Made by a program: the position numbers and the translations under genes
Notes under the pieces: generated by a model
Database searches by the model: none
What the model was told of the DNA's origin: nothing
The model's input: the letters and a program-made list of their open reading frames with translations, nothing else
Shown: positions 8,301 to 34,071 of the stretch, one piece after another
Layout of the letters: the number at the start of each line of letters is the position of its first letter
Numbering within the stretch: position 1 is the first letter of the stretch
Origin: a virus
Lineage: Duplodnaviria > Caudoviricetes
DNA length: 46,748 bases
Strand: one strand, 5' to 3'
Virus record (IMG/VR): IMGVR_UViG_3300027653_000018
Coordinates: 1 to 46,748 of that record

Positions 8301-8332
8301 ATTAAATCAATATAAACACTTATGTCAACATG

Positions 8333-8363
8333 TAAAGGTAAATATATTTTTTATTTATCCAAA
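8333..8363 (-). promoter_or_regulatory. Bacteroidetes sigma70-type promoter for the scaffold/capsid operon
   Basis: Minus strand TTTG-N19-TACCTTTA. Confidence 0.5.
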
Positions 8364-8420
8364 TACTTTCTGGAAAATTATTTTTATTTCAAAACTACTT
8401 TTTATGCAATTCCCGACAAA

Positions 8421-8551
8421 AAACCTACATTTTTAAAGTTTTTATTTTAGTTTGTTGATTATCAATAGGTTAAAATAAAAATAAAAAACTTTTTCAGAAA
8501 ATAGTACCCCCTATCAAAAATGATTTTCTTTTTCTAAAAGGTAATATAGGA
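8421..8551. repeat. ~130-bp non-coding repeat, copy 1
   Basis: Colinear with 32984..33113 (…aaaataaaaaactttt…ccccctat.aaaaatgatttt…aaaaggtaatatagg). Confidence 0.8.
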
Positions 8552-8648
8552 ACTTTTATAATATTCTTATCCTTATATGTAATTCGCTATAAGTCAATAA
8601 AATACCTTATTGCAATAAAAAAAGGCGTTTTCGCTAAAAAACACCTCT

Positions 8649-9533
8649 TTATTCTTTTTTCATTGAATTATACATATTTTCAGTTATATATCTTGGAATA
8701 TGTAAACATCCCCAACCACCCATATCCAACAAAGGGTCGTAATTTAATTTCTTTTCATTCAGATTTTCTGCTTTTATCCCGACGATAGGTGCACATTCTT
8801 GTCCTATCAATTCTCTCCATCCTTGTGCTTCTTCAATGCTAAATGCCTTCCCTACTCTTTCGATGCAGAAACATCTAGACCTCTCTACGATTGTACCTGC
8901 ATAAATAAAATGGAATAATTGATATTTATTTGCTTGCTCATTCGTAATTGCTCTGTCATTTTGTATATAAGTATCTCTAATTGTTGTATCTAAATATGCT
9001 TTAATTCTCGACCTCTTATTCTTATTTGTTTCTAAATAATCATTCAATTTTTCGCTTGTTGCTCCGAAATTCCTGCCATTCGCAATATCCATTTCAAGCA
9101 TTGTTCTAATATCATTTGCAATCGCTGTATTCCTTACAATCCTACCTAAATATCCATTCTTCTTTAATCCTCCTTTATCATTAATCCCTAACCTGCGTTT
9201 TAGTACTGTTTCTCCTATTTCGCCATTATATTTTACTTTTGAAATATCCTTAAAATAAATCTTGTTTTCTTTCAAAGAACTGGATAAACTTTTCACAAAA
9301 TCCTTAATCAAAGGCTCTATTTGCTTCTGGTACTCTTTTATGAAATTCGCCTCAATTACATTTAATTTATTAAGATTTACCATTGTTTGTTTAAAACTAC
9401 CCTCTTCATTTACATCTAATTTCTGCATTTCCTCCTGCATAATCATTATTAACCTCTTCTCAATCTTTTCTATTTTCTTTTCATATTTACCAAAGAATTT
9501 TTGAAATATATTCTTTTTCTTATCTTCGTACAT
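8649..9533 (-). CDS. Head morphogenesis / minor capsid protein (Mu F-like)
   Basis: C-terminal Y-x-G...SRCFC...GGWGCLH motif. Confidence 0.7.
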   Translation of the reverse strand: MYEDKKKNIFQKFFGKYEKKIEKIEKRLIMIMQEEMQKLDVNEEGSFKQTMVNLNKLNVIEANFIKEYQKQIEPLIKDFVKSLSSSLKENKIYFKDISKVKYNGEIGETVLKRRLGINDKGGLKKNGYLGRIVRNTAIANDIRTMLEMDIANGRNFGATSEKLNDYLETNKNKRSRIKAYLDTTIRDTYIQNDRAITNEQANKYQLFHFIYAGTIVERSRCFCIERVGKAFSIEEAQGWRELIGQECAPIVGIKAENLNEKKLNYDPLLDMGGWGCLHIPRYITENMYNSMKKE

Positions 9534-9926
9534 ATGCGATACATTTTTATATTTATATTATTATTTCTATCATCTTGCGACCCTGTTCGTAGGCATGCAA
9601 ATCTTGTTGAACGTTATCCTTACGTTCACAAAAATGATACTGTAATAATCAAAGATACAATACAAATAATAAAAGAAAGCGTTTTAATCGACACTTTCAC
9701 TGCAATTGAATTTGATACTTTTGTTGTTGAAAAAGAAAAAGCAAAGGTTAAATTAGTAAGAGTAAATGACACAATATTTGTTGATGCGGAATGTTTAGAG
9801 GATACATTTTATGTTGAAAAAGAAAAAATAATTATTGAAAAATATTCCGTAAAGCCAAAGAAAAGATATTGGTATTTATTATTAATTGGCGTTACTTTAG
9901 TTATTTTTATCTGGATAAGAAAATAA
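9534..9926 (+). CDS. Lipoprotein, u-spanin-like, copy 2; the only clear plus-strand gene
   Basis: MRYIFIFILLFLSSC lipobox plus C-terminal TM helix (RYWYLLLIGVTLVIFIWIRK). Confidence 0.75.
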   Translation: MRYIFIFILLFLSSCDPVRRHANLVERYPYVHKNDTVIIKDTIQIIKESVLIDTFTAIEFDTFVVEKEKAKVKLVRVNDTIFVDAECLEDTFYVEKEKIIIEKYSVKPKKRYWYLLLIGVTLVIFIWIRK

Positions 9927-9962
9927 CCCTCCACCTTCACAAAGCGGTTTTACATTATGTTA

Positions 9963-10001
9963 TATATCCGCTACTTTATAGCGGGTATAAGTAAGTTAGG
10001 T
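9963..10001. repeat. Palindromic element (TATAyCCGCTA-N5-TAGCGGGTATA-AGTAA-GTT) abutting a cassette start, copy 1 of 3
   Basis: Also at 26541 and 27928. Confidence 0.85.
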
Positions 10002-10007
10002 GCAATG

Positions 10008-10235
10008 CTATTGAGACCGCAACCATTCCGTTAGCTTTTTCTTTCTTTCATAACTTTTGACTGTTCCTATTTGGTAATTAAACGCTCCCATTCGTTGATA
10101 GCATTCGCCAAAAGGGTTGGCAAAAGCAATAAACTTACCGTCTTTTACAACCCACAGATTACCACGAAAAGAATATACACCATCTTTGCGGTCTTTTGCT
10201 TTCTCGTGTAAGATATTTGTTTCTTCAATTGTCAT
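10008..10235 (-). CDS. Cassette-borne hypothetical protein
   Basis: Likely start MTIEETN at 10235; lies within cassette 9995-10388. Confidence 0.65.
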   Translation of the reverse strand: MTIEETNILHEKAKDRKDGVYSFRGNLWVVKDGKFIAFANPFGECYQRMGAFNYQIGTVKSYERKKKLTEWLRSQ

Positions 10236-10260
10236 CTTTTCAAACTTTGTGAGAAGCACT

Positions 10261-10394
10261 GCACCTAACAAGGTATTGCCAAAAGCAGGACATTCTCGGT
10301 TAATTAATAATTTGTAATTCTATTGGGTATTTTTGCAAGGTTGAAATTTTCTACTTTTAAATCCCTGCCTTCGGCAATACCCGAACCGTTGTAG
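10261..10394 (+). repeat. attC-like site
   Basis: gcacctAAC-aaggtattgccaaaagcagg ... cctgccttcggcaatacc-cgaacc-GTTgtag. Confidence 0.85.
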
Positions 10395-10398
10395 GCAA

Positions 10399-10617
10399 TT
10401 AGTTTGTGACTTCTTTCTTGCATTCAAAGCAGAAGTATGTTTTATCGTCATCATATCCGTACCAAGTTAAATTAGGGTTTCCACAGTCACAAACTAACTG
10501 TTCGCTTTGCCCCACAACATTCAATAAAAGCAATATTTGCTTCGTGGCTTCTTGTAGGGTTATCTTATTAATTTCAAAGTCCATCAGGACACATTTAATT
10601 TTATTTTCTGTTGTCAT
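10399..10617 (-). CDS. Cassette-borne small zinc-ribbon protein
   Basis: CxC...CxxC; N-terminal half encoded inside the attC-like loop. Confidence 0.7.
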   Translation of the reverse strand: MTTENKIKCVLMDFEINKITLQEATKQILLLLNVVGQSEQLVCDCGNPNLTWYGYDDDKTYFCFECKKEVTN

Positions 10618-10642
10618 ACTGCTTTTATTTTTTACGCTATGT
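10507..10642 (+). repeat. attC-like site with degenerate GCT core, overlapping an ORF
   Basis: ttgccccacAAC..aataaaagca ... tgcttttatt..GCTatgtg. Confidence 0.65.
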
Positions 10643-10894
10643 GTAATGCTGTCTAATTGCTTCTATTTCACTTTCGTTTAAACTCGTTGTTTTAATTCTT
10701 TTGAGGTGGTTTATTGCCTCTATGTAATGGTTTGCATTTTCATACATCTTTTCTATAATTCTTTTTACACAATCAGCTTCAATGTTATTTCCTTTTTCTA
10801 ATTGTCTTTTTTCGTTTCTTTTTTGAAATTCTATGTCTTTAAGCAAAGAATTATACCTAACTTCTAGCCTTTCTATCAAAATTAAATCTTGCAT
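10637..10894 (-). CDS. Cassette-borne hypothetical coiled-coil protein
   Basis: 85 aa; stop codon overlaps the cassette core site. Confidence 0.7.
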   Translation of the reverse strand: MQDLILIERLEVRYNSLLKDIEFQKRNEKRQLEKGNNIEADCVKRIIEKMYENANHYIEAINHLKRIKTTSLNESEIEAIRQHYT

Positions 10895-10925
10895 TTTTAT
10901 AAGTTTTGTGGCTTAAACCCGCACA

Positions 10926-11021
10926 ACACATAACAACGTGTATAGCAAATAGCCTATTAATATTCAGTTCTTAATTCGGCGGTTCGTGCTTCGGCTACTT
11001 GCCATACACAAACCGTTAGGC
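10926..11021 (+). repeat. attC-like site
   Basis: acacatAAC-aacgtgtatagcaaatagcc ... ggctacttgccatacac-aaacc-GTTaggc. Confidence 0.85.
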
Positions 11022-11477
11022 AATATTCCAAACATCGTCCCAATTTGAACAACCTCCTGAAATATCCACTTTGGGGAATTGGTTAAAAAACCATTCATCA
11101 AAAATTTCAGAATGGATATTGCACTGGCAGGATGGCGAGCATTCACTAATATCATATCCATTGTCTTCGCAGTATTCTTCGAAATCTTCGTGCCTGTCAA
11201 ACATCCCAAATTCTTCTATTAAATAGTCTTCTATCTCTTCCGCTAATTCGTGCATATCAATAACAGAAACCGAACTATCTACTCTAATTAAATATCTTAA
11301 ACCGATTCTACAATGTTCATTAAATCCTATATAAATTAACTTATTTCCATCCCCAAATACTTTATCTACAAGAATTGAATTTGGAAATTTTTCAATAAAC
11401 TTTTCATAATGCATATCGCCTAACATAGTATTGCCGTCATTGTGGCTTAACTGCTTATTTTCAACTGTATTTTTCAT
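11016..11477 (-). CDS. Cassette-borne acidic hypothetical protein
   Basis: 153 aa; TAA stop within GTTA; start inside the attC loop. Confidence 0.7.
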   Translation of the reverse strand: MKNTVENKQLSHNDGNTMLGDMHYEKFIEKFPNSILVDKVFGDGNKLIYIGFNEHCRIGLRYLIRVDSSVSVIDMHELAEEIEDYLIEEFGMFDRHEDFEEYCEDNGYDISECSPSCQCNIHSEIFDEWFFNQFPKVDISGGCSNWDDVWNIA

Positions 11478-11531
11478 ATTTAACTTTAGTTTTTATTTCC
11501 GCAACGAACGGCAATACTCCGACCGTTATCT
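11413..11531 (+). repeat. attC-like site
   Basis: atatcgcctAAC-atagtattgccgt ... acggcaatact-ccgacc-GTTatct. Confidence 0.85.
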
Positions 11532-11604
11532 GCAACCTTAGCGACACCCTACCATTCATAGATACCGCCTCGTTAGACAATTTTTCGTTGCTCATAATTT
11601 TTTG

Positions 11605-12090
11605 CTTATTAAAAACAGGGATTTCCACCCTGTTGTTATGGTAACCAGCTCTTACCATATCTGGAACTGAGTTAGTTCCGTCTTTTCCCTGGTTCTTCTG
11701 AACACCACCTTAACTCGTTGTAGTCCCGAATAAAAATGACTACATGATGGCTCTCTCAATGACCACTCACCAGTTTACACTCCTGGCTTCTTTGTAGCTT
11801 TACATCTCCCTCCCATTGACGAGTTCGATAACCTATAATTATATAGGGTAGCCTTCACAAAATAACGTTTTGCAAGACGGATTTTATTATTCAAGAGTTT
11901 ACTCTCTATATCCTTATAACTACTCTGCTTTAACAGTCTATAACTGCCCTGACTCATTATAAGAATTGAGGGTGCTATCAGGGGGATAGCATTCTCCCCC
12001 CCCTACGTTTTTTTTCGTGTGTTTTTACTTACCCACGAAACCCGGTACGCTAACTATGTGCCCTTTTTAGTTATTTAATTGTGTGTCTTT
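11605..12090 (-). ncRNA. Candidate large structured non-coding RNA or leader
   Basis: About 480 nt without a convincing ORF, elevated GC, at least 8 short hairpins, directly downstream of a promoter. Confidence 0.4.
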
Positions 12091-12098
12091 TTCTATTG

Positions 12099-12130
12099 TA
12101 AAGATACGACTTATTTTTTAAACTACCAAA
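12099..12130 (-). promoter_or_regulatory. Bacteroidetes-type promoter facing the ncRNA candidate and cassette array A
   Basis: TTTGGTAG...AAGTCG-TATCTTTA; near-copy of the promoter at 12626-12657. Confidence 0.7.
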
Positions 12131-12154
12131 TCTTTTTGCAAATTATTTTAAAAA

Positions 12155-12191
12155 GCCTACTCTGTTAAAGGATTTTCGGCATCCTCCATTT
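12155..12191 (-). repeat. Conserved intergenic motif GGAGGATGCCGAAAATCC-N6-AGAGTAGGC, copy 1
   Basis: 22-bp and 9-bp exact blocks shared with 34036..34071. Confidence 0.8.
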
Positions 12192-12585: not shown

Positions 12586-12625
12586 AATTTTTATTTTTTT
12601 AAAGTTCTTAGCAATATTGCTAATA

Positions 12626-12657
12626 CAAAGATACGACTTATTTTTCAATCTACCAAA
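12626..12657 (-). promoter_or_regulatory. Bacteroidetes sigma70 promoter
   Basis: TTTG-N20-TATCTTTG consensus. Confidence 0.75.
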
Positions 12658-12691
12658 TTATTTTACAAAAAAAATTAATTATATACTAAAT

Positions 12692-20813: not shown

Positions 20814-20866
20814 AATTTTTATTTTTTTTTGTAAAAATAATTTATCTTTTAATTCACTTAAAATAA

Positions 20867-21508
20867 CTACGGTACTGCGCACTTGAATATATGTCTTGGG
20901 TTCCAATAGCTAGGTCTCAATCCATAAGGTATACCTGTTTTACAGGGCACTGAACGCATCAATTTATTGTTATGTCCACGAATACTCCAATCCTCTGGCC
21001 ATTCTTTTACTTCCCATTTCAACACCTGACCCCAGCCATCACCAGTGTTCTTACCTATAGCTGTACTGAATTGCAATAGCTCCATAATCTTATCTGGAAC
21101 CCCTACACAATACCACTCTACATACTCCGCAAAACGGTAATACATTTTGATGTGGTATGCTTTATGTTTACCTCTCTGCACATCTATTTTTTTAACCTTA
21201 TCGATAAGATAGTCAGAATGCCTAAGCCAATCTCCTGACTTTACTTTAAAACTACTGTCCTCTACCATTTTTTCTGGCCATTGGGCAAAACTGCAATGGT
21301 AAAACCAAGTGTCATCTTTACGCCCTCCCTTCTTTATAGGCAACAGTGGCACAGTAGCTTCTCTCACTGTACTTTCACCGGGTTTACTAATAACCTCCTC
21401 ACCTAAATGCCTTCGCACATGATGATAATATAAAATAGCATCTAAGGGTAGGTGCTTGTCCGATATTATTGGCGTTTGTAAATACGCTCTTATTCTTAAT
21501 TGTTTCAT
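20867..21508 (-). CDS. csf3: Type IV CRISPR-associated Csf3 (Cas5-like RAMP)
   Basis: LRIRAYLQTPI..PLDAIL N-terminus; Gly loop IGKNTGDGWGQV; RPSYW tail. Confidence 0.8.
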   Translation of the reverse strand: MKQLRIRAYLQTPIISDKHLPLDAILYYHHVRRHLGEEVISKPGESTVREATVPLLPIKKGGRKDDTWFYHCSFAQWPEKMVEDSSFKVKSGDWLRHSDYLIDKVKKIDVQRGKHKAYHIKMYYRFAEYVEWYCVGVPDKIMELLQFSTAIGKNTGDGWGQVLKWEVKEWPEDWSIRGHNNKLMRSVPCKTGIPYGLRPSYWNPRHIFKCAVP

Positions 21509-21509
21509 T

Positions 21510-22178
21510 TTAGTTAGATATTTCTGGAAATTTTAATAATAGTTTTTGGTATGCGGTAAAATCCCTTGCTTTTAAATCGCTTAAAAATTGTTCTCTAATT
21601 CCAAAATCTTCTCTAGGAATTCGTGAAGCTGTTCTGCTTTTTATCCCATTTATTTTATAACTATTTAGCATAGGTAAACTATTGGCGAATGCATAAGTGG
21701 CTACATCTTTATCAGTCCATTCAGCTAGTGGACTAATTCTTACTAATCCTGCTTTATTCTTATAGAATAACCCATGCGTCTTTAATGTAATTCTTCTTGC
21801 TGTAGACTCCTGCATCCTCAATCCAACAAAAAAAGCATCATATTCTTTACCTACATCATATCTATCTTTTCTTTTGTCAGATAAAGAAATTCGGCACATC
21901 TCAATCTGCTCTAGGTTTATATTACCCCATTGACTTATAACTTCATCATAATTATCTATATGCTCCGTTTCCCCCTCCCACCTAATAAACCTCACTTTTA
22001 TATTTGGTCTAATTTCTCGAACAAGGTGCAACATCACCGCACTGTCTTTTCCAAATGAACAAGCCACATAGGGTTTGTCTACTTTATCTAAAGCCCACCT
22101 AATAAAGCCCCTTGTTTTCTCCACAAGGGCTTTATATGGTTTTAACTGTGCATAAATCATTGCCGTTTTTCTATCCAT
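21510..22178 (-). CDS. cysH: CysH-like PAPS-reductase-family protein of the type IV-B module
   Basis: SFGKDS PP-loop, VGLRMQES..R, PLAEWTDKDV. Confidence 0.85.
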   Translation of the reverse strand: MDRKTAMIYAQLKPYKALVEKTRGFIRWALDKVDKPYVACSFGKDSAVMLHLVREIRPNIKVRFIRWEGETEHIDNYDEVISQWGNINLEQIEMCRISLSDKRKDRYDVGKEYDAFFVGLRMQESTARRITLKTHGLFYKNKAGLVRISPLAEWTDKDVATYAFANSLPMLNSYKINGIKSRTASRIPREDFGIREQFLSDLKARDFTAYQKLLLKFPEISN

Positions 22179-23089
22179 TATTCAAACAAAGATTTTGATA
22201 TTCCTTTTTCAAAATAATCACTTACATCTTTTTTAGCGCCTTTATAAATATCCATATACTTCACAAAATCTTCATTCTGGAAATCAAGCTCGCTATCTAT
22301 CACCTTTGTTTCTTTTATCTCCAACTTTATTGCTCCATGCCCTACACGCCCATTGCCTCCCACCTGACTGTTTTGTTCTACCCATGTGTTTAAGGTTGAA
22401 AGAAAAGCACCTGTTTCTACATCATTTGTATCTTTAAGACAAATACGCCAATAGAACTTTGTACCCGCAACAATAGTTTCAGTGTCGTACTTCATCTGAA
22501 CAGGATTAGCTTTTTTTGCAGTATCATCATCATCTTGCAAAAATTCTTTCTTGACTTCATCTTTTGCATCATCCTTGCGGGTGTACATTTCAAGTTGGCA
22601 ATATTCCCAAATACTTTTGGGCTCTTCTGTATAAACATTGTGATATTGCTCTGGTATTAAGTGTAACGTTTCTTTAGCGATTGGAATTAATTTACCTATT
22701 TCAACCTTACCTGGTATAATAACATTGCCCACGCTACCTCCTAAAACGCTAAGCATAGGCATATCTTTTCTCATCTGCCTAACCTTCTCTATATTTATAC
22801 CGCTAGAACCTTTACTCTCTAAGCTTCCACCTGTAAATAGCAAATTAAAACTATCCGCATCTACCTTTATTTTTGTTCCATCTTGTTTAGATAAAATTTC
22901 GATGGCAGCAATATCTCTTAATTTTCCACGTACACTATTACCTGAAATAACAGGTATTTCAATTGGTTTCCCGTTTTTTTGTATAAATTTCTCTCTGCGT
23001 AATTGAGTTACTGTACCGTTCTTTTCTCCTCCATTGTGCGTTATTGAAGATAAGGCAGTTACTATGCCTTCTAAAATGTATGTTTTCAT
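22178..23089 (-). CDS. csf2: Type IV CRISPR-associated Csf2 (Cas7-like backbone)
   Basis: ALSSITHNG, IPVISGNSVRGKLRD, LFTGGSL, VGGNGRVGHG Gly loop. Confidence 0.88.
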   Translation of the reverse strand: MKTYILEGIVTALSSITHNGGEKNGTVTQLRREKFIQKNGKPIEIPVISGNSVRGKLRDIAAIEILSKQDGTKIKVDADSFNLLFTGGSLESKGSSGINIEKVRQMRKDMPMLSVLGGSVGNVIIPGKVEIGKLIPIAKETLHLIPEQYHNVYTEEPKSIWEYCQLEMYTRKDDAKDEVKKEFLQDDDDTAKKANPVQMKYDTETIVAGTKFYWRICLKDTNDVETGAFLSTLNTWVEQNSQVGGNGRVGHGAIKLEIKETKVIDSELDFQNEDFVKYMDIYKGAKKDVSDYFEKGISKSLFE

Positions 23090-23091
23090 TT

Positions 23092-23460
23092 TTAATCGTT
23101 TTTATTGTTTTCAATTTCTTTAAAATCTTCTTTTCTCTGTTGGTTTCGTAACCTAACAAGCATCATCATATAAGTGCTTTCTGTTCGCAACCAATTCAAA
23201 ATCTCCTCATCTTGATTTGTGTCTACTACTTTCTTAATATCTTTGACATACTGCGCCTGTAAATCTAAAGGAATACGTCTTTGGAATAATGATAAAAAAC
23301 CTTTTAGGCTACCTGTGTATGATGCGGATTTTATAGCATTTTCAAAATGTTCCCAAATATCACGGGGGTATTTCATTTTATAGTCCTCGTGAATACTTCG
23401 CCATAAACCCCATAACAACAGGTCGGCTACTTCTTCTTGTGATAATTGTTTGTTCAACAT
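23092..23460 (-). CDS. cas11: Type IV-B small subunit (Cas11-like)
   Basis: 122 aa helical protein between csf1 and csf2; WEHFENAIKSA. Confidence 0.6.
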   Translation of the reverse strand: MLNKQLSQEEVADLLLWGLWRSIHEDYKMKYPRDIWEHFENAIKSASYTGSLKGFLSLFQRRIPLDLQAQYVKDIKKVVDTNQDEEILNWLRTESTYMMMLVRLRNQQRKEDFKEIENNKND

Positions 23461-23468
23461 AATTGTAT

Positions 23469-24149
23469 TTATTTATTGTTAGAAAATAGCATCCAGCTTG
23501 CAAAATCAAACATTGGTTTGCCCCGATGCTCTTTAATTTTATCTTCGTTTATCCTCCAAATTTCAAAGCCGTTTTTGGCGATAAAATTTGGATTATAGTC
23601 TCCGTTAATGATAGATGTCTGTGTAAATCCTGCATGTAATAAGTTTTGCATGGTACTGTGTAAAAATTGCAAATATTCTATATCTGGATAAATAAACAAT
23701 TCATCTAGTTGCCACATACCAATTTTGTGTTTAAATAAGATGTGTTTTTGTCCAGTATCCGTAAGACATACCAATTCAGCGCCATTACATATCATATCGT
23801 ATATTTCTTTCTTGTTTGCTTTTGTCATACAATACCATTCTCCATTATATATTATATGGGAGTAGGTTCTGAATCTTTGCGGTTTTTCTTTTTTTACTTT
23901 ATTCTGAATTTCTGCGCTGGATTCATCAAAGCAAAATAGCGCTTCATTGCTAATAATATCACCAGGTAGTAGGTATGCATGGTCTGTAAATGTTGGTCTT
24001 ACCCATTTTTTAAAGCTAACACCATAAGCTTCGTTGCCTGTTATTCTGCACATCCCCAATTCCTTACCATAAATTGGTCTTGATGATAAGCTATATATTA
24101 ATTGACAAGGGTGTATAGCATGTAATATATCATTTGTACTTTTGTTCAT
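23469..24149 (-). CDS. csf1: Type IV Csf1 (Cas8-like large subunit)
   Basis: CRITG...PTFTD..L, QKH motif; first gene of the operon. Confidence 0.65.
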   Translation of the reverse strand: MNKSTNDILHAIHPCQLIYSLSSRPIYGKELGMCRITGNEAYGVSFKKWVRPTFTDHAYLLPGDIISNEALFCFDESSAEIQNKVKKEKPQRFRTYSHIIYNGEWYCMTKANKKEIYDMICNGAELVCLTDTGQKHILFKHKIGMWQLDELFIYPDIEYLQFLHSTMQNLLHAGFTQTSIINGDYNPNFIAKNGFEIWRINEDKIKEHRGKPMFDFASWMLFSNNK

Positions 24150-24178
24150 AATTTTTTGTAAAAATAAGTTTTTAAAAT

Positions 24179-24400
24179 CTAATAGCCAAAATTTTCTATC
24201 CTTTCTTTTATTCTAATTATCCATTCTTTATGCAAATCTAAAGTCTCCCTATCATTACCTAACTTATGCATATTTAGGTCAATAAAATCAAAATGATACT
24301 TTAATTGCCTATCTACCTTTGTCATTAATATCTTTCCTGTATTCAATCTCTTTGGAATATCTGCATTGATATACCATTCTTTTAATTCGCTATATAACAT
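24179..24400 (-). CDS. Hypothetical protein
   Basis: 73 aa coupled ORF. Confidence 0.55.
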   Translation of the reverse strand: MLYSELKEWYINADIPKRLNTGKILMTKVDRQLKYHFDFIDLNMHKLGNDRETLDLHKEWIIRIKERIENFGY

Positions 24401-24623
24401 ATTTATCTTTATTTACATAACATTCAAATCCTAATTTAGTTAATCTTTTTAACCAAACTTTTTGAAGCGGTGATAATCTATCCCATTTTTCTTTGGATTC
24501 AACAAATACAACGTGGTTCGGTTTAAGGCAAATAAGGTCGGGAAGTCCTATTGGTGAGATTACTATAAGATTAATAACGAAATAATTTTTAGACTTCCAA
24601 TATTTTATTAATTTACTTTGCAT
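24390..24623 (-). CDS. VRR-NUC family nuclease
   Basis: GLPDL...FVESK...LSPLQ PD-(D/E)xK motif; start uncertain. Confidence 0.8.
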   Translation of the reverse strand: MQSKLIKYWKSKNYFVINLIVISPIGLPDLICLKPNHVVFVESKEKWDRLSPLQKVWLKRLTKLGFECYVNKDKYVI

Positions 24624-25842
24624 ATTTTTTAAACTCTTTTGTATTAAAGTCTTTCTTTTGTGATACCGTATTATAAACATCCTCCATTATACCACCCTCT
24701 TCAAATATGAAATATATTTCCATTGATTCTCTGCCTCTAACTGTTATCCTATCTATACTTTGTGTGAAGTCCTTTCCCGAAAAACCAAAATTTAAAAACA
24801 CTAAATAATCTGCCTTACCTAAATTCACTCCTTCTGTCGTTCTTTGCTGTAATGCAATATTCTTATCTGTATTATTAAATTCTTCTAAATCCTCTGTTAT
24901 TTCATCTCCAAACACTTCTTTTAACATCTCCAATTCTTTTCTAAAATAATACATTATAGCAATTTTACTTCCTTGAAATCTTTCTTTAATTAATCTTGCC
25001 TTGTAGTCTGATAATATAATTGCTTTTGTCTCTCCAAAATCATCTTCAACCATCACTGTTCCGTTATAAATCTGGTGCAACTTTCCTAATAATTTCGCTG
25101 GCGTTTCACCCATTATATAAAATTCTTTCCCTACAACTGTCTTATACTTCTTTAAATCATTAGCTATTCTTTCAATTAATCTCGGCATTGGCGTTCTTAA
25201 TTTTCTAACTTTAATATCTCCAAACATTTCCTCATTCTTTTTAAGAGTAATAATATATTTAGATAAAGCTTTATTAATTAATTCTTCCCTTGCTTCGCTA
25301 TAATCATTTATAGTATGCGTTCCAATCCTCTTCTGTTTCTTATTTACATAAATATCCGCAAATCTATAAAAGTTCTTAAATTCAGAAAACGGTGATTTTA
25401 AACTTACATAAAATTGATGAAAATATTGTGAAAGGCTTTCAATCGCTGGCGTTCCTGACATTAATAAACAAGGTAAATCTTTATATTTACTTCTTAAATA
25501 CTTTGCAGTCTTATTAGGTTTAGGATATGAACCTAAAACATGCGCTTCATCATAAATTATAAAATCTGGATTAAATTCCACTTTATGAACACTTTCATAA
25601 TTTATCACTTCTAAATTATATTTAAATCCTGTTGCTTCAAAATCCTTCTGGATTGAACTTATTGACTTCTTCCTTGTTAGAAATAATACATTCTTAAATC
25701 CTAATTCATTGACTGTAAACAACACCGTAAATGTCTTTCCACTTCTCGGTTCTCCAAATAAATAACAAATTCCATACTCTTTTATTACTTTCTTTACCTC
25801 TTCTTTTGCCTTAATTTGTGAATCATCTAAAATAATATTCAT
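24613..25842 (-). CDS. SF2 (SNF2/DEAH-like) helicase
   Basis: PRSGKT, IYDEAH, MSGTP, EGVNL, QSIDRI. Confidence 0.88.
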   Translation of the reverse strand: MNIILDDSQIKAKEEVKKVIKEYGICYLFGEPRSGKTFTVLFTVNELGFKNVLFLTRKKSISSIQKDFEATGFKYNLEVINYESVHKVEFNPDFIIYDEAHVLGSYPKPNKTAKYLRSKYKDLPCLLMSGTPAIESLSQYFHQFYVSLKSPFSEFKNFYRFADIYVNKKQKRIGTHTINDYSEAREELINKALSKYIITLKKNEEMFGDIKVRKLRTPMPRLIERIANDLKKYKTVVGKEFYIMGETPAKLLGKLHQIYNGTVMVEDDFGETKAIILSDYKARLIKERFQGSKIAIMYYFRKELEMLKEVFGDEITEDLEEFNNTDKNIALQQRTTEGVNLGKADYLVFLNFGFSGKDFTQSIDRITVRGRESMEIYFIFEEGGIMEDVYNTVSQKKDFNTKEFKKYAK

Positions 25843-26179
25843 GCACTAATTTATTTTTTAAAAGTTCTTTATTAAAATATGTATCTCCTTCCGAATTATT
25901 ATCTATATAAGACACATGCCATTCATTTATGTAATCTTTATATTTCTCATATGTTTTAGCTCCACCGATTACCCAATCTACATCTAAAATAAATCCATTT
26001 CTTTTATCTAAAATAACTTCCCTGTCTTCTAAAATTGGTAAGTTTACAAACGTATTAAAACCTGCTAATAATCTTGGTTTTCTTCCATTTACCTTTTCTG
26101 TAGTTAATTTCCTGAATAGCTTTAAATCCTCTGGACAGTTCCATATTAATTTGTTATTTACTGCTACTATTGCTTTCAT
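25823..26179 (-). CDS. folA: Dihydrofolate reductase, compact and divergent
   Basis: IVAVN..LIWNCPEDLKLFRKLT, WVIGGAKTY, GDTYF. Confidence 0.75.
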   Translation of the reverse strand: MKAIVAVNNKLIWNCPEDLKLFRKLTTEKVNGRKPRLLAGFNTFVNLPILEDREVILDKRNGFILDVDWVIGGAKTYEKYKDYINEWHVSYIDNNSEGDTYFNKELLKNKLVHEYYFR

Positions 26180-26197
26180 TTTATTTACATTTCGTTG

Positions 26198-26527
26198 TTA
26201 TATGCCATTTAAATCAATCATTTCTAAACATGAATATTCAGCTAAACCACTTGGCGTATATTCTTGAATATATAAAGTTCTATTGCTTATATGTAGATTT
26301 AAATCATCTATTTTTACATTGTGTTTTAACGCTAATTCCGAAAAAAAACGGCTTATAACACTACCTATACGATTTTCTTTAACCTCACTTATCACTATAT
26401 CTAAAGCTTCTGTCAGTTTTTTAGGCTCGTGAATCATATCCTCTCTTTTTCCAAGCCTCCACTCCTGATGATATTCAAGTATTTCTATTGCTGTTTGTAA
26501 TTCCATTTTTTTATTTATTTTCCCCAT
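26198..26527 (-). CDS. Cassette-borne hypothetical protein (intact copy)
   Basis: Stop within GTTA; crosses the inverse core at ..GSVISRF. Confidence 0.7.
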   Translation of the reverse strand: MGKINKKMELQTAIEILEYHQEWRLGKREDMIHEPKKLTEALDIVISEVKENRIGSVISRFFSELALKHNVKIDDLNLHISNRTLYIQEYTPSGLAEYSCLEMIDLNGI

Positions 26528-26579
26528 TTCATATTTATTGTATACCCGCTATAAAGTAGCGGGTATAAGTAAGTTGTGT
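26350..26579 (+). repeat. attC-like site whose right arm is the palindromic element (copy 2, loop inverted)
   Basis: ggcttatAAC-actacctatac ... gtataagtaa-GTTgtgt. Confidence 0.6.
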
Positions 26580-26595
26580 GCAATACCCCACCGCA

Positions 26596-27261
26596 CTAAA
26601 ACGGCAGTTTATTTTTATTATATTTAAAGTCATATTTCGGCTTCTTTTTTGGCAAATAATCACGCCAATCAAAATGCCTAAAAACAAATATCGCATTGCC
26701 AATTATTACAAGAGGTGTTCTCTTATGTGTAGGACTTCCAGTTCGCCCCAATTCCTTCAAAAATGTTTTCCTGTCAAATAATAAGAACAACCATAACGCA
26801 CACTCTTTGCCAAGTCTATATTTTGGGGCTTTATGGTGTATGTAGCCTTCAATAATTGGCAATGCTTCACCATCAAATAATGGCTCATACTTGTACATTC
26901 TTTCAACAGGACTATGGAAGTACCATTTACCAAGTTTGTATTTATCAAGCCTTGTCCAAAATTCTTCATACACACCAGTTCCTAAACAACTCCAACAAGT
27001 TTCAGGCATTTTCCAATCGCTCTTAAAAACACCTGTACTATCGCAACTCCAACAGTCTTTTTTTATGTGCTGAATATCAGTGCCTACTTTTGTTGCATAC
27101 TTTTTTAATAGGTGTGTTTTTAACTCATAGAACTCTGATTTTGCCAAAAAAGGAATATCCCGATTAGCATTGTGCAGTAGCCAACCCACAAAGTACTGCA
27201 CACAACAACGTATAAAAAACAGTGGGCTGTATCGTGCTGATTTTAAAGTGTTTTGTTTCAT
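26596..27261 (-). CDS. Cassette-borne protein with a DnaJ-like zinc finger
   Basis: CWSCDSTG and CWSCLGTG. Confidence 0.7.
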   Translation of the reverse strand: MKQNTLKSARYSPLFFIRCCVQYFVGWLLHNANRDIPFLAKSEFYELKTHLLKKYATKVGTDIQHIKKDCWSCDSTGVFKSDWKMPETCWSCLGTGVYEEFWTRLDKYKLGKWYFHSPVERMYKYEPLFDGEALPIIEGYIHHKAPKYRLGKECALWLFLLFDRKTFLKELGRTGSPTHKRTPLVIIGNAIFVFRHFDWRDYLPKKKPKYDFKYNKNKLPF

Positions 27262-27333
27262 ATCTTATTTAGTTGTGGTGGACAGGTAAGTGCTTCTATC
27301 TGCCACCGATTTTTTATACTCGGAACGTTGTAG
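27197..27333 (+). repeat. attC-like site
   Basis: tgcacacAAC-aacgtataaaaaacagtgg ... ccaccgattttttatac-tcggaac-GTTgtag. Confidence 0.85.
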
Positions 27334-27337
27334 GCAA

Positions 27338-27586
27338 TTAGTTTGCCTGCTTAGTGCATTTACAAGGCTTCCCACCATACTCATCAATGTACACTTCCAA
27401 TCCTTGGCAATTAGGGCAAACTAACTGTTCGCTTTGCCCTACAACAACAGGTTGGCAAAATAATTTTACTTGCTCCTGCGCATATTCTTCCATTGCTTTC
27501 AACACTGCATCGTGTAACGGAGAGCCTTCATTTATATTAAGCGTTCTCTTTGTAGCTTCTTTCAATATTTCTTCCTTTGTTTTCAT
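27338..27586 (-). CDS. Cassette-borne small zinc-ribbon protein
   Basis: VVGQSEQLVC junction followed by CPNC...CKC. Confidence 0.7.
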   Translation of the reverse strand: MKTKEEILKEATKRTLNINEGSPLHDAVLKAMEEYAQEQVKLFCQPVVVGQSEQLVCPNCQGLEVYIDEYGGKPCKCTKQAN

Positions 27587-27615
27587 AATTTATTATAATT
27601 AAATTGTAATTAAAA

Positions 27616-27702
27616 ATTGCCCGTGAGAATCGAACTCACCTCATCCTGCCGTAAATTGTAGTGCGCATCTACAAAGTGCATTATCCCGCCGATTAGGGCA
27701 AC
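27616..27702 (-). tRNA. Degenerate tRNA-like element
   Basis: Acceptor GTTGCCC/GGGCAAT, T-arm GTGAG-TTCGATT-CTCAC, stem TTGTAG-ATGCGCA-CTACAA; weak D arm, no CCA. Confidence 0.5.
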
Positions 27703-27719
27703 TTTTCATATACTTAACA

Positions 27720-27914
27720 TTAGCCGCAAGCCTGATTACACTTCCGATAAAACTGTTCTAATCCCCAACTTATAATTGCATCTTCACATTCGATAAACCA
27801 AAGACCGTCTTTCCAACTGAAATAAACGTGCATACAAGTTCTATTGTAATAGGCTAATTTATCGCCGACCTTTACATTTGGTCTTTGAAATAAATATCTA
27901 AATAGTTTTTTCAT
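27720..27914 (-). CDS. Cassette-borne hypothetical protein
   Basis: 64 aa; starts just after palindromic element copy 3. Confidence 0.6.
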   Translation of the reverse strand: MKKLFRYLFQRPNVKVGDKLAYYNRTCMHVYFSWKDGLWFIECEDAIISWGLEQFYRKCNQACG

Positions 27915-27927
27915 TTCATATTTATTG

Positions 27928-27966
27928 TATACCCGCTACTTTATAGCGGGTATAAGTAAGTTAGCA
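27928..27966. repeat. Palindromic element, copy 3
   Basis: tatacccgcta-cttta-tagcgggtata-agtaa-GTTagca. Confidence 0.85.
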
Positions 27967-27971
27967 GAAAC

Positions 27972-28268
27972 CTAAAAAACATCGCTAAACCTTTTTTCAT
28001 AACCATACTTTTTAGTGAGTTTGGTAATTAGTTCATTTGTATATTTGTGAATTTCTGATTTAGGATAACAAGTAGGTTGATGAACAACGCCAGTTATAAC
28101 ATCAATTAAATATGTATCGTAAACGTGCCCTTCGCCTAAAAAATATCCTATTTCATAACCAAAATGACTATCCCAAACAACACGGTCGTTGAAGGAAAAG
28201 GCATCTGCTAACAATGTATAACCGTCAGGCTTAGTTTCCGTTTCTTTTGAAAGTTTTTGCTCATTCAT
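27972..28268 (-). CDS. Cassette-borne hypothetical protein
   Basis: N-terminus MNEQKLSKETETKPDGYTLLAD encoded by the attC loop and arm. Confidence 0.7.
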   Translation of the reverse strand: MNEQKLSKETETKPDGYTLLADAFSFNDRVVWDSHFGYEIGYFLGEGHVYDTYLIDVITGVVHQPTCYPKSEIHKYTNELITKLTKKYGYEKRFSDVF

Positions 28269-28336
28269 AATTTCTATATTTTTAATTAAGTTAATCTTTT
28301 ATTCACGCCCGAACGGTTATACTCGGCACGTTAGTT
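28204..28336 (+). repeat. attC-like site
   Basis: tctgctAAC-aatgtataaccgt ... acggttatac-tcggcac-GTTagtt. Confidence 0.85.
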
Positions 28337-28623
28337 GCAATTAGTTTGTTGCCACATTTCGGGCAAATAAGTAACCAAGCGTCATTTACAACAGGTGTTT
28401 TATCAGCACTTTCGTTATGTGTGCCAATCCACCCACATTTACAACATTCCCACTTTGCATTTACATCTACCTGTGCTATACCCAATATTTTTAACTTATG
28501 TTCGTAGTATCTTTCAGCAAAGTCTAACATTGCTGTTTTGTTAAAACCATTTTCGGGTAGTTCTTTTGGTGTCCACCATTCTTCAAAATATTCTTCTACT
28601 GTCATCCTGTTTAAGTTTATCAT
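28303..28623 (-). CDS. Cassette-borne zinc-ribbon protein
   Basis: CCKCGW...CPKCG. Confidence 0.65.
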   Translation of the reverse strand: MINLNRMTVEEYFEEWWTPKELPENGFNKTAMLDFAERYYEHKLKILGIAQVDVNAKWECCKCGWIGTHNESADKTPVVNDAWLLICPKCGNKLIATNVPSITVRA

Positions 28624-28665
28624 TATTAAATCGCCCTACACATACACGCAAAACGTTGTAGGCAA

Positions 28666-28956
28666 TTATTTTTTGACTTCTTTCTTGCATTCAAAGCAGA
28701 AGTATGTTTTATCGTCATCATATCCGTACCAAGTTAAATTAGGTTTTCCACATCCACAAACTAACTGTCCGCTTCGCCCTTCAACAGCAGGTATAGTTAA
28801 TTTTTTCAAATCAGCTACAACAGCGCAAATTGCTTGAGCATAGTGGGAGTTTTTAAGCCTATCTTCTTTGGTGTACATAAGTGGGTCTTCACACACTCTT
28901 CTGTGTAAGGCAATTTTCTCATCCCACTTTTCAATCAATTTCTGTAATTCATTCAT
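28666..28956 (-). CDS. Cassette-borne protein sharing its C-terminal module with 10399..10617
   Basis: ..QLVC.CG.PNLTWYGYDDDKTYFCFECKKEV. Confidence 0.7.
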   Translation of the reverse strand: MNELQKLIEKWDEKIALHRRVCEDPLMYTKEDRLKNSHYAQAICAVVADLKKLTIPAVEGRSGQLVCGCGKPNLTWYGYDDDKTYFCFECKKEVKK

Positions 28957-29005
28957 AATTTATCTATTTAAATCAAAAACTAACCATACCTGCGACACGT
29001 TATAT
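28775..29005 (+). repeat. attC-like site with a long coding loop
   Basis: cgcccttcAAC-agcaggtatagttaattttt ... aaaaactaaccatacctgc-gacac-GTTatat. Confidence 0.8.
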
Positions 29006-29309
29006 GCCATTTAAATCAATCATTTCTAAACATGAATATTCAGCTAAACCACTTGGCGTATATTCTTGAATATATAAAGTTTTATTGCTTATATGTAGAT
29101 TTAAATCATCTATTTTTACATTGTGTTTTAACGCTAATTCCGAAAAAAAAACGGCTTATAACACTACCTATACGATTTTCTTTAACCTCACTTATCACTA
29201 CATCTAAAGCCTCTGTTAATTTTTTAGGCTCGTGAATCATATCCTCTCTTTTTCCAAGCCTCCATTCCTGATGATATTCAAGTATTTCTATTGCTGTTTG
29301 TAATTCCAT
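29000..29309 (-). pseudogene. Frameshifted duplicate of the 26198..26527 cassette gene
   Basis: A9 at 29143-29151 versus A8 at 26341-26348; truncated to 67 aa. Confidence 0.75.
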
Positions 29310-29354
29310 TTTTTAGTTTTTATTAATTATTTCTGATATACGGATATCATTCAA

Positions 29355-29606
29355 TCAATTTGAATCCAAGTTGTTTTTTAAATCATCCGCTATTTCTAAA
29401 GGCACAAATCCTGCATCGGATAACGATTGGCATAAAAGCATTATTTCTAAAGTAACGTCTTTTTCACACTTCTCACATCTAAAGTTTGCCCTACTCTTTC
29501 TATACCAAGCGTTCCCAACTTTAATATTTTTTTCAGAACATAATTGCAATACTTTTTTTTCACACGGTTCTAATTTCTTAATAGTTGCATCATTTATAAA
29601 CCACAT
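29355..29606 (-). CDS. Hypothetical protein (CxxC)
   Basis: 83 aa ORF. Confidence 0.55.
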   Translation of the reverse strand: MWFINDATIKKLEPCEKKVLQLCSEKNIKVGNAWYRKSRANFRCEKCEKDVTLEIMLLCQSLSDAGFVPLEIADDLKNNLDSN

Positions 29607-29637
29607 TTTATTATATTTTTAAATTTTCATTTAAAAA

Positions 29638-29722
29638 TGCGGGGGCTTCTTCCTCTCTGGAACGGTCAGCCTGTCCGTCAAGGTTGCGACCCTTGATATG
29701 ATACCGCTTTAAACGTCCCGCA
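29638..29722 (-). ncRNA. Candidate small structured RNA
   Basis: GC-rich island closed by TGCGGG/CCCGCA with internal hairpins. Confidence 0.4.
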
Positions 29723-29753
29723 CTCTTCATATGCTTTTCCGTTGGTGGCAATA

Positions 29754-30050
29754 TTATTCGTGCCATTCAATTTCAGTTCCGCAATTATCGCAACACTCTT
29801 CAAAAGTTACTCGCTCGTTGACAATGTATGCTTCACAATTAGGGCAATAAGCGTCTGCTGTTTCTGCTACCTTTATTATTTCTTTTACTTCAAAACCTAA
29901 ATGTATTGAGTGATTTAAGAAAGCTAATCCATTTAAAAGTGGCGTTCTAAACTCTATGCTTAAATCTTTATAAACAATATTAACTGCTTCTTTTGGCACC
30001 TTAACAAAATGCACTTGATTAGTTTCTAAAATTAGTTTTATTTCTTTCAT
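29754..30050 (-). CDS. Zinc-ribbon hypothetical protein
   Basis: CPNC...CDNCG.EIEW. Confidence 0.65.
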   Translation of the reverse strand: MKEIKLILETNQVHFVKVPKEAVNIVYKDLSIEFRTPLLNGLAFLNHSIHLGFEVKEIIKVAETADAYCPNCEAYIVNERVTFEECCDNCGTEIEWHE

Positions 30051-30065
30051 AATTTATTTAATTTA

Positions 30066-30160
30066 AAAAATAAGGCAGGTATTAAGTTTATAATGTGGTC
30101 TCCTGCTAGCAAGGAATTTACCGTGTCCACTTTGCCACCTCTTTCGAGTGCCTTATTTTT
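30066..30160 (-). ncRNA. Candidate small structured RNA or terminator
   Basis: 12-bp closing stem aaaaataaggca/tgccttattttt; CTC-GAAA-GAG hairpin. Confidence 0.35.
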
Positions 30161-30244
30161 CTTAATCAAATTCGCCTTTCTCAATAATATTTATCGTAAT
30201 GTATAATATTGATAACACTGCAATCAATAATATTAATATTCCTA

Positions 30245-30505
30245 CTAACATATCTTATAATCTCTTTTAAGAATTTTAATTGCTTTCTCATGACAAATAT
30301 CCATATTTATATGTGGTCTTGTTTCTAATGCATGCTTCCCTTTAATTATTATCTTTCCCAAAGGAGTTACATGAATAGTATAAAGACTACTCTTGAATAT
30401 TCTTTCTTTTTCACACAATTTTGTAATAATCATATAAACTTTATCTATACCGTCAAAAGCTTCTCTAATCTCATTGACTGTCTTCTTTAATACGTTTCTT
30501 TCCAT
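30245..30505 (-). CDS. Hypothetical protein
   Basis: 86 aa ORF downstream of the primase. Confidence 0.55.
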   Translation of the reverse strand: MERNVLKKTVNEIREAFDGIDKVYMIITKLCEKERIFKSSLYTIHVTPLGKIIIKGKHALETRPHINMDICHEKAIKILKRDYKIC

Positions 30506-34014: not shown

Positions 34015-34035
34015 CTTTTTTATTTTTAAAACAAT

Positions 34036-34071
34036 GCCTACTCTTTTCTGGATTTTCGGCATCCTCCATTT
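34036..34071 (-). repeat. Conserved intergenic motif, copy 2
   Basis: Matches 12155..12191. Confidence 0.8.

Follow-up and report, generated by a model that had tools for sequence, protein, structure and literature searches.

The function of CRISPR-Cas systems of type IV-B has been open since their description, and published accounts, in the portions available, name CysH as the key component and call it 'nearly invariant' or 'strictly conserved'. For another type IV-B system, a filament on RNA has been described in the part of the report available (PMC7937560), and 6-nt base flipping, together with the idea that CysH modifies the bound nucleic acid, appears in the accessible text of PMC7937560 and PMC8175902.

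The type IV-B system of Mycobacterium sp. JS623 (PDB 7JHY) has the same five families as the operon described here, which lies in a 46,748-nt stretch that makes up an entire Caudoviricetes genome record (hereafter the window), and shares with it a Cys-less PP-loop CysH, location on a mobile element and the lack of an array, Cas6 and adaptation genes. The window differs from JS623 in its host, which is probably a member of Bacteroidota, and in the position of cysH, a Gly in Csf2 and a degenerate Csf1 zinc finger. Its relatives differ further in swapping CysH for TGT/DpdA-like, methyltransferase (MT) or radical SAM enzymes. By itself the window's operon is an ordinary type IV-B member; the new point lies in its relatives, in which CysH is interchangeable, contrary to the 'nearly invariant' in print. 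No published report of CysH replacement was found among openly accessible papers, including in the main text of Makarova 2025 (PMC12669027) and Altae-Tran 2023 (PMC10910872), whose supplements may list neighbours.

The type IV-B operon of the window

Five minus-strand genes in the order csf1-cas11-csf2-cysH-csf3 form an array-less type IV-B operon of the known kind, confirming the identity proposed in a first-pass annotation. These are csf1 (23469..24149), encoding a Cas8-like large subunit of 226 aa (PADLOC typeIV_Cas8/Csf1, E 2.9e-9); cas11 (23092..23460), encoding a small subunit of 122 aa (PADLOC typeIV_Cas11, Cas11_1_IV, E 3.1e-20); csf2 (22178..23089), encoding the Cas7 backbone of 303 aa (PADLOC typeIV_Cas7/Csf2, Csf2_0_IV, E 6.9e-71); the gene of a CysH-like PP-loop protein of 222 aa (21510..22178; Pfam PAPS_reduct, 1.9e-15), which occupies the payload slot; and csf3 (20867..21508), encoding a Cas5 of 213 aa (PADLOC typeIV_Cas5/Csf3, E 1.1e-46). 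The tight coupling and boundaries annotated in the first pass were recovered, with intergenic gaps of 8, 2 and 1 nt and a 1-nt stop/start overlap of csf2 and cysH. Placement of cysH between csf2 and csf3 had also been read correctly, although it is the usual order in the clade and not an oddity. The weakest PADLOC match of the four Csf/Cas11 genes is csf1, yet its position is conserved in relatives, and both csf2 (TIGR03115, 95 bits) and csf3 (62 bits) score below the curated NCBIfam cut-offs of 130 and 140 bits.

The HMM and structure searches suggested as a check agree with the annotation, PADLOC recognising Csf1, Cas11, Csf2 and Csf3 and Pfam recognising CysH. The closest PDB entry to Csf2 was the Cas7c of 11fs (2.6e-21), followed by the Csf2 of 7jhy (2.5e-18), and Csf3 matched the type IV-A Csf3 of 7xfz (E 7.7e-11); profile searches of the PDB with Csf1 and Cas11 returned nothing relevant. 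The Cas7 and Cas5 glycine loops, already recognised in the letters, are invariant across relatives. Csf2 Gly25, which is invariant in 73 sequences, aligns by sequence with the putative catalytic Asp42 of 7JHY, a position at which 98 of 107 parsed rows have Gly and none has Asp, so that Csf2 appears to lack the putative nuclease residue and would not be a Csm3-like RNase. Within the clade Csf1 has a degenerate zinc finger, with C34 alone invariant in 42 relatives, and distant relatives retain CxxC pairs. No Csf-CysH fusions were found among 150 representatives.

Pfam matches place the operon between VRR-NUC (24390-24680) and dnaN, as annotated, the start of dnaN being at 20813 and not at that of a longer TTG ORF overlapping csf3. 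A helicase gene (24613-25842) with weak SNF2, ResIII and Cas3 matches below cut-off is paired with VRR-NUC, and a helicase-type neighbour is not constant among the operon's relatives. An AT-rich 16-bp direct repeat, by simple count present as a 16-mer just twice in the genome, brackets the operon on the minus strand, with one copy just upstream of csf1 (24152..24167) and the other after the stop codon of csf3 and ahead of dnaN (20825..20840). The operon has a GC content of 0.351 and its flanks 0.288 and 0.280, and the operon appears to be an inserted cassette. In three of the 4 read runs examined, out of 20, there were relatives about 96% identical, cysH included, all of them contigs; loose ends at 20827/20829 in the reads coincide with the AT-rich repeat and were disregarded.

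Standard and looser scans found no repeat-spacer array in the window, the lone two-copy repeat of the looser scan lying inside the gene at 2474-4714, and no model of Cas1, Cas2 or Cas6 matched any of the 62 other ORFs; both absences had been noted from the letters. The same 62 ORFs contained none of the marks of types IV-A, IV-C or IV-D, namely DinG, a Cas10-like HD subunit or RecD with an array, and the large subunit is the 226-aa Csf1. A CRISPR-like mini-array next to csf1 was present in one of 217 loci scanned (L182).

The further suggestion that structured RNAs of this genome serve as guides found no support. Blastn of 51 upstream and 56 downstream flanks, in search of a shared guide RNA, gave only close-kin matches, leaving no flanking non-coding element common beyond close kin; inspected by eye, the flanks contained terminators and attC-like sites. 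Rfam matched two cis-regulatory DUF805b motifs, at distances of 8.7 and 9.9 kb, and the 62-nt repeats we take to be Bacteroidota-type promoters. A sigma-70 promoter scan was at chance level (35 vs 36.7), and no Bacteroidota-type promoter was found directly upstream of csf1.

One spacer of a 180-repeat array in a Bacteroidota MAG encodes the Csf2 glycine-loop peptide exactly, which indicates that a phage of this clade met a CRISPR-armed host. The L099 spacer was rejected as evidence of the host of this particular phage: it mismatches the window at 9 positions and the nearest loci at 8, and the other 178 spacers yielded no convincing match, so that the window phage is not itself the target.

Exchange of CysH for unrelated enzymes

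CysH in type IV-B operons is exchangeable for unrelated nucleotide-modifying enzymes. A pooled set of 157 distinct Csf2 loci, which are related to one another and come from biased scans, so that counts are not prevalences, comprised 114 with IV-B-type CysH, 21 with a minimal TGT/DpdA-fold protein, 9 with a small SAM MT, 2 with a radical SAM enzyme and 11 with none of these, and not one carried two of the four families. IV-B-type CysH was retained in 0 of the 32 non-CysH loci, 21 of which are fully visible (each flank 800 nt or longer); the cut-off for this type was 90 bits, and the genes above it had a median of 198. A PAPS-reductase-family gene does occur near the operon in L018 and L308 (14-16 and 33-46 bits) and is absent from the near-identical L020 and L305-307/L309. 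The TGT-like and CysH profiles are unrelated.

Swaps occurred repeatedly between loci with core proteins 90-97% identical. L006 (CysH) and L018 (MT) have core proteins 96-97% identical, with an exchange spanning the csf2 stop to the csf3 start, and L214 (CysH) and L210 (TGT-like) are 95% identical in Csf2 and 90% in Csf3; the window's own Csf2 is 80% identical to those of two MT loci (L001/L015). Quick and FastTree trees, which carried long-branch warnings, do not unite the MT loci in a single clade (AU p 8.5e-7, 25 rows). Csf2 tracks Csf3 (rho 0.81, p 0.0005) and not CysH (rho 0.09, p 0.29) across 14 close CysH loci, and MT does not track Csf2 in the inner 7 MT loci (rho 0.04).

Viral loci anchored on the TGT-like gene were type IV-B in 25 of 25 cases, 15 of them on contigs new to the analysis, and the gene, which is absent from the window, occupies four different positions within IV-B operons and was found only there; it had no match in cultured phages or plasmids. 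CysH-anchored loci of at least 130 bits have cas genes in 21 of 22 cases, and radical-SAM-anchored loci are type IV-B in 3 of 4. The 3 close loci of the MT-anchored scan were all query seeds, and the putative dedication of the MT draws instead on an indirect contig-length match (11 of 61 clusters, against a null mean of 0.46 and maximum of 5). Distant MT relatives without IV-B genes (44 loci) belong to a cassette of ParB, MT and radical SAM genes, often near terminase, with ParB-like genes in 43 and radical SAM-like genes in 37 of 46 loci.

Additional genes also enter the operon, including HTH and sigma-region-4 genes, IbrA/IbrB, GNAT, Cas6-family genes (L097, L304 and L324), SPOUT methylases and phosphatases. 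In one locus (L325) the TGT-like gene is accompanied by a methylase of another kind (Trm1-like, 269 aa), and two (L022 and L147) combine CysH with another radical SAM family. The idea that the operon belongs to a packaging module was discarded, as its position varies among terminase/portal, tail, helicase, integrase and antirepressor surroundings.

Predicted chemistry of CysH and its replacements

True PAPS/APS reductases carry a C-terminal catalytic Cys in an ECG motif. The window's CysH has an intact SFGKDS loop, Cys at 40 and 95 only and no C-terminal catalytic Cys; PP-loop residues S41, G43, K44 and S46 are invariant in 124 sequences, and ECG occurs in the last 40 aa of 0 of 150 CysH representatives. 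With the catalytic and Fe-S cysteines absent from its sequence, the protein would be neither a true PAPS/APS reductase nor a DndC. In comparisons with its AF2 model (pLDDT 96.5), no clear best match emerged among APS reductase, CysD, FAD synthase and PAPS reductase (Z 14.6-15.8), and tRNA thiolases or TilS score lower than these small-molecule enzymes, at Z 10-11.7. This fold and these motifs suggest that CysH most likely adenylates a base or other acceptor with ATP, as an activating step. A CysH-mediated nucleotide modification, one of the functions put forward in the first-pass annotation, has strong comparative support, as other families of nucleotide-modifying enzymes take the place of CysH in a mutually exclusive manner.

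The model of the TGT-like protein (pLDDT 96.1) is closest to arcTGT (Z 16.9, rmsd 3.0, 207 aligned), followed by TGT (Z 15.2), DpdA (15.1), PdxJ (15.1) and Cap10 (14.9). Five of its 6 top VIA structure matches are in the TGT superfamily (Z 13.7-16.9), and its Atlas TM is 0.70 to the DpdA cluster and 0.75 to the TGT cluster. By sequence the family has no PDB or Pfam TGT match and weak NCBIfam ones, below every family cut-off, and the PDB profile search gave nothing relevant. In 108 sequences D82 and D196 do not vary and D43 is kept in at least 90%; these residues may be equivalent to the catalytic and base-binding residues of TGT. At 221 aa (range about 220-250), against 325-577 aa in the matched targets, the predicted enzyme is short, which is consistent with substrate delivery by another module. 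In several loci its operon neighbours include the preQ transporters QueT and YhhQ or, in L035, the start of a QueC-like ORF. The MT and the radical SAM enzyme are putative, the MT call being made from motifs, weak HMM matches and Atlas features.

Proposed mechanism and relation to known systems

By a modest balance of probability, the Csf complex acts as a scaffold bound to RNA, and an exchangeable enzyme modifies bases in the nucleic acid that it presents. Csf2 and Cas11 would assemble along a short RNA into a Csm-like filament, perhaps capped by Csf3 and Csf1, which would not cut and would hold either that RNA or a nucleic acid paired with it, the bases being flipped out at 6-nt steps and shown to a co-translated, exchangeable writer. 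In the window this writer would be the CysH-like PP-loop protein, acting by ATP-driven adenylation of a base or other acceptor; in relatives it would be a minimal TGT/DpdA swapping guanine for an imported or synthesised 7-deazaguanine, a SAM MT or a B12-type radical SAM enzyme. Maturation of the bound RNA may fall to Cas6, SPOUT methylase and phosphatases where these accompany the writer. DNA is slightly favoured over RNA as the modified target, and the phage would probably gain a mark, protective or silencing, that helps it withstand host defence or rival elements. A fuller version, RNA-directed base modification with a plug-in writer and a putative guide RNA, with gene-for-gene writer swaps and the operon moving as an attC-like cassette in some lineages, is put forward tentatively. 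The scaffold model draws throughout on genomic or predicted evidence, and a specific docking surface is hard to reconcile with exchange between unrelated folds when the subunits next to them are 96-97% identical.

That core proteins are unchanged upon a swap suits a slot that is merely a recombination hot spot, filled by phage DNA-modifiers acting independently of the Csf complex. This agrees with the distant MT relatives in ParB cassettes lacking IV-B genes, the entry of IbrA/IbrB, GNAT and HTH genes, and the modification of virion DNA by phage DpdA, according to the part of PMC5699537 available. It is nevertheless unlikely, as hitch-hiking genes would be added beside CysH, which all 32 non-CysH loci have lost, and as the TGT-like gene was found in IV-B operons only (25 of 25), at four different positions. 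In type IV CBASS, Cap9 is QueC-like and Cap10 is TGT-like, and the enzymes could similarly act on proteins or small molecules, the RNP sensing RNA and the enzyme making or reading a signal, such as a protein mark or adenylated messenger. The top Foldseek match of the TGT-like protein is indeed Cap10 with NDG-modified CdnD, a QueC-like ORF accompanies the TGT-like gene in L035, the enzymes most similar to the window's CysH are CysD, FAD synthase and APS reductases, and the radical SAM matches include protein and peptide methylases. Base exchange is a better fit to the presence of two unrelated importers of free preQ base, QueT and YhhQ, inside TGT-type operons, and the 59 flanking ORFs scanned contain no recurrent gene for an effector, sensor or toxin, making such chemistry improbable.

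Sequestration of host crRNA, as first suggested, or of other small RNA, with an enzyme that merely marks or inactivates it, is doubtful to a greater degree. RNA bound by the solved complex is heterogeneous and 55-60 nt long, the MAG spacer places a phage of the clade in a CRISPR-armed host, and SPOUT methylases and phosphatases suggest RNA handling. Such a sponge, however, leaves the enzyme unexplained and needs no four alternative chemistries; co-expressed crRNA was not enriched in the solved complex (about 0.12% of reads) in the available portion of PMC7937560, and that of PMC7038947 describes a negative association between type IV-B and other CRISPR systems. Guided DNA binding or transcription silencing as in type IV-A, with borrowed or mini-array crRNA and an accessory enzyme, is very improbable: Cas6-family and HTH genes in some operons and the mini-arrays of L182 and, in the accessible text of PMC10848311, of Fuxivirus would suit it, but loci of this kind are a small minority, and the window has no Cas6 or array and DinG/RecD are unlinked.

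The replacement of CysH by nucleotide-modifying enzymes of other families, a putative guanine-exchanging transglycosylase among them, suggests that these complexes place a chemical mark on nucleic acid. The reaction of CysH is difficult to predict, and the TGT/DpdA swap with preQ transporters makes function directly assayable, near-identical operon pairs differing in the enzyme alone being ready-made controls. If the mark is RNA-directed, the system would be a natural programmable base modifier.

Two other virus-borne type IV-B systems with CysH compare with the window. Fuxivirus, from viruses of Bathyarchaeia, has a mini-array, unlike the window (PMC10848311, in the part available), and Skermania phage SPI1 (KR011061) has a Csf2 33% identical to that of the window and cysH after csf3; the portions of the Fuxivirus and SPI1 accounts examined describe no enzyme exchange. 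The TGT-like payload of the window's relatives shares with DpdA, TGT and archaeal TGT the predicted barrel (Z 15.1-16.9) and the QueT, YhhQ or QueC-like neighbours, has a conserved Asp pattern that may correspond to theirs, and differs in its small size of about 220-250 aa, scores below family cut-offs, restriction to type IV-B and absence from the window. QueC-like and TGT-like folds also occur in a defence-type system in Cap9/Cap10 of type IV CBASS (PDB 9NTO, 9NTN), although those structures concern protein modification, and a CD-NTase-type partner was not noted here. Dnd (DndC; accessible text of PMC8175902), phage IbrA/IbrB and ParB-methylase pairs likewise combine a PAPS-reductase-fold or methylase writer with a nucleic-acid module. 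Compared with DndC, the CysH described here lacks the Cys or Fe-S motif, and its partner would be a Cas7 filament rather than ParB/DndD.

The phage and its type IV-B operon

The window, an entire record of 46.7 kb, is from a phage and encodes a terminase. Its host is likely a member of the Bacteroidota, since the primase has relatives in phages of Flavobacterium, Polaribacter and Cellulophaga and the sequence contains promoter motifs of the Bacteroidota type. Five tightly coupled genes had been proposed by the first-pass annotation, and five ORFs, tightly coupled as described, are present on the minus strand (24149-20867), where matches to Csf1, Cas11, Csf2 and Csf3 models and to a PAPS-reductase domain with its PP-loop retained bear out the proposed identities, including that of the CysH homologue. 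The description of the locus as array-less and devoid of cas1, cas2 and cas6 also stood, as scans of the window detected no array, Cas1, Cas2 or Cas6. The operon has a GC content of 0.351 against 0.288 and 0.280 in its flanks, and copies of a 16-bp direct repeat lie at its two ends and nowhere else; from these features we infer that it is an inserted cassette.

The structures nearest to Csf2 are type IV-C Cas7c and the type IV-B Csf2 filament of Mycobacterium sp. JS623 (7JHY). In the alignment an invariant glycine replaces the putative catalytic Asp42 of 7JHY, making Csm3-type cutting unlikely on sequence grounds, and Csf1 has lost most of its zinc-finger cysteines. The confident model of the CysH-like protein (pLDDT 96.5) falls in the APS reductase/CysD/FAD synthase group (Z 14.6-15.8). 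Its family combines the PP-loop with invariant Arg, Glu and Tyr residues, and inspection of the window and related sequences found no catalytic Cys. These features fit an adenylyltransferase, as already suggested for CasCysH (PMC8175902).

Elsewhere in the window, four 62-nt repeats (12090-12151, 12617-12678, 37627-37688 and 37718-37779) include three that, read on the minus strand, fit the promoter pattern of the Bacteroidota type, and there are two DUF805b RNA motifs (12154-12189 and 34035-34069) and a tRNA-Tyr predicted by ARAGORN (27614-27703). A 203-nt inverted repeat (97%; 1-203 and 9575-9777) lies on both sides of the structural region and an endolysin-like gene segment is duplicated (97%; 1753-2052 and 46276-46575) close to both ends, which may be due to inversion or to the assembly. 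At 9900-11700 and 26000-30300, successive small genes are spaced by palindromic repeats of common families (D2, D5-D8 and D10), an arrangement that resembles attC-type cassette arrays, and the segments 26197-26537 and 28999-29340 are duplicates.

Four enzyme families in one operon role

At an E-value cut-off of 0.001, 419 relatives match Csf2, and among loci collected from viral, metagenome and genome contigs the commonest gene order is csf1-cas11-csf2-X-csf3, so that the annotated placement of cysH between csf2 and csf3 is confirmed as the usual position of X. This slot is visible in 84 loci (70 distinct): 57 have CysH there, 11 a class I methyltransferase of 156 aa and 2 other enzymes. The two loci nearest to the window in Csf2 (L001 and L015; 80%) both encode the methyltransferase, and the best match of the window CysH (71%) is found in loci with a more distant Csf2, at only about 66% identity. 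Loci L006 and L018 share 92% DNA identity on either side of a gene-for-gene slot exchange that retains translational coupling. Core genes diverge together, whereas CysH does not (Mantel rho 0.81 versus 0.09; 14 loci); the methyltransferase follows Csf2 across 10 loci (rho 0.88) but not within the inner 7 (rho 0.04), and a tree test rejected a single clade for the methyltransferase loci.

A Csf3-anchored scan (79 loci, from the best 80 of 82 matches) recovered ten loci that lack IV-B-type CysH and encode a homologue of the L035 slot protein, in both positions otherwise used by CysH. Searching with this family, a putative minimal TGT/DpdA-fold transglycosylase (TGT-like) matched by 158 protein clusters, returned 25 loci, all 25 of them IV-B and 15 on new contigs. 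Its predicted model resembles archaeal TGT, bacterial TGT, DpdA and the type IV CBASS protein Cap10. TGT-type operons also contain QueT (the close kin L305-309, and L318), YhhQ (L321 and L322), the start of a QueC-like ORF at a contig end (L035), a glycosyltransferase-like gene (L319, L324 and L326, with a weak Pfam match for L326 only) and Cas6-family genes. QueT and YhhQ are transporters of preQ, and in phages TGT-like proteins put 7-deazaguanines into DNA (PMC5699537). In L032, L170, L327 and L328 a B12-type radical SAM family stands in place of CysH.

Pooling the scans and leaving out L004, L014 and L099, as well as short matches to Csf2 and rows with identical Csf2, gave 157 loci, of which 114 carry CysH, 21 the TGT-like protein, 9 the methyltransferase, 2 radical SAM, 11 none and 0 two of these, counts that are not prevalences because the scans were anchored on these very genes. 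Contigs under 3.5 kb account for 8 of the 11 loci without a slot enzyme, 21 of the 32 loci that lack CysH can be seen in full, and slot state changes at least 19 times on a FastTree phylogeny. Exceptions to exclusivity are L325 (TGT-like with a Trm1-like methylase), L018 and L308 (a nearby low-scoring PAPS-reductase-family gene) and L022 and L147 (CysH with another radical SAM family); additions beside CysH comprise a SPOUT methylase, phosphatases, IbrA/IbrB, GNAT, Cas6 and HTH proteins. One role is filled by four unrelated enzyme families, of which at least two, CysH and the TGT-like family, are restricted to IV-B operons among the loci examined.

Several other features were observed in these contigs. 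A GTTA-led 9-mer 5' of csf1 recurs as its reverse complement past the csf3 stop in 7 of 31 loci (L006, L018, L020, L007, L015, L041 and L052, three of them close kin) versus 15 of 930 cross pairs. Because the pair resembles integron core and inverse-core sites, the entire operon may travel as a single attC-like gene cassette; the pair was not seen in the window, and the literature searched contained nothing on such movement. A DUF559/Vsr-type endonuclease gene lies between cas11 and csf2 in L012 (5208-6020), and the unusually long Csf2 and Csf1 ORFs of L317 (2942-4315) and L323 (1056-3071), without Pfam match, are possibly fusions. L099, from a MAG labelled Proteiniphilum, has a CRISPR array of 180 repeats (49-11758), one spacer of which encodes the exact Csf2 glycine-loop peptide and differs from the nearest loci at 8-9 nt. 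In L182, a CysH-type IV-B phage, a two-repeat type I-E-like mini-array (about 123-217) lies immediately 5' of csf1. A widespread phage cassette (L102-L145) combines genes for a ParB-like protein and a Trm1-like methyltransferase with a radical SAM gene on the opposite strand, and is often close to the terminase; the one methylase searched has no PHROG family.

Candidate substrates and alternative explanations

In the favoured reading, somewhat more likely than not, a nucleic-acid base would be the common substrate of all slot enzymes. The compact TGT barrel would need a delivery module, and the Csf filament would be that module for the slot enzyme. The IV-B filament studied in another system holds heterogeneous RNA of 55-60 nt with every sixth base flipped and does not enrich crRNA (PMC7937560). 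For the present operon no guide RNA was found in flanks compared among relatives or in a mini-array scan of the window. DNA as the target is favoured by the kinship with DpdA and by the occurrence of distant methyltransferase relatives in ParB cassettes, and RNA by the Csm-like backbone, weak Trm1/KsgA matches and the SPOUT extras.

Among other explanations, slot enzymes acting as independent hitch-hikers seem improbable, as such genes should join CysH rather than replace it, and Cap9/Cap10-like protein or signal chemistry, which the Cap10 likeness and the QueC-like ORF bring to mind, is given an equally low weight. A crRNA sponge appears still less probable, considering the RNA content of the filament. 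Guided silencing is very improbable.

Relation to described type IV-B systems

By every testable criterion the window operon is an ordinary IV-B member, and IV-B loci on phages are already known (PMC7038947, PMC10848311). The main text of the 2025 classification mentions neither CysH nor TGT (PMC12669027), and no report of CysH replacement in IV-B was found in the main-text literature searched. The feature is real, and the new point is that in the family to which the operon belongs the modifying enzyme can be exchanged, which turns IV-B function into a testable question: where cysH has been described in print as "nearly invariant" or "strictly conserved" in type IV-B, in the relatives collected here it is exchangeable.
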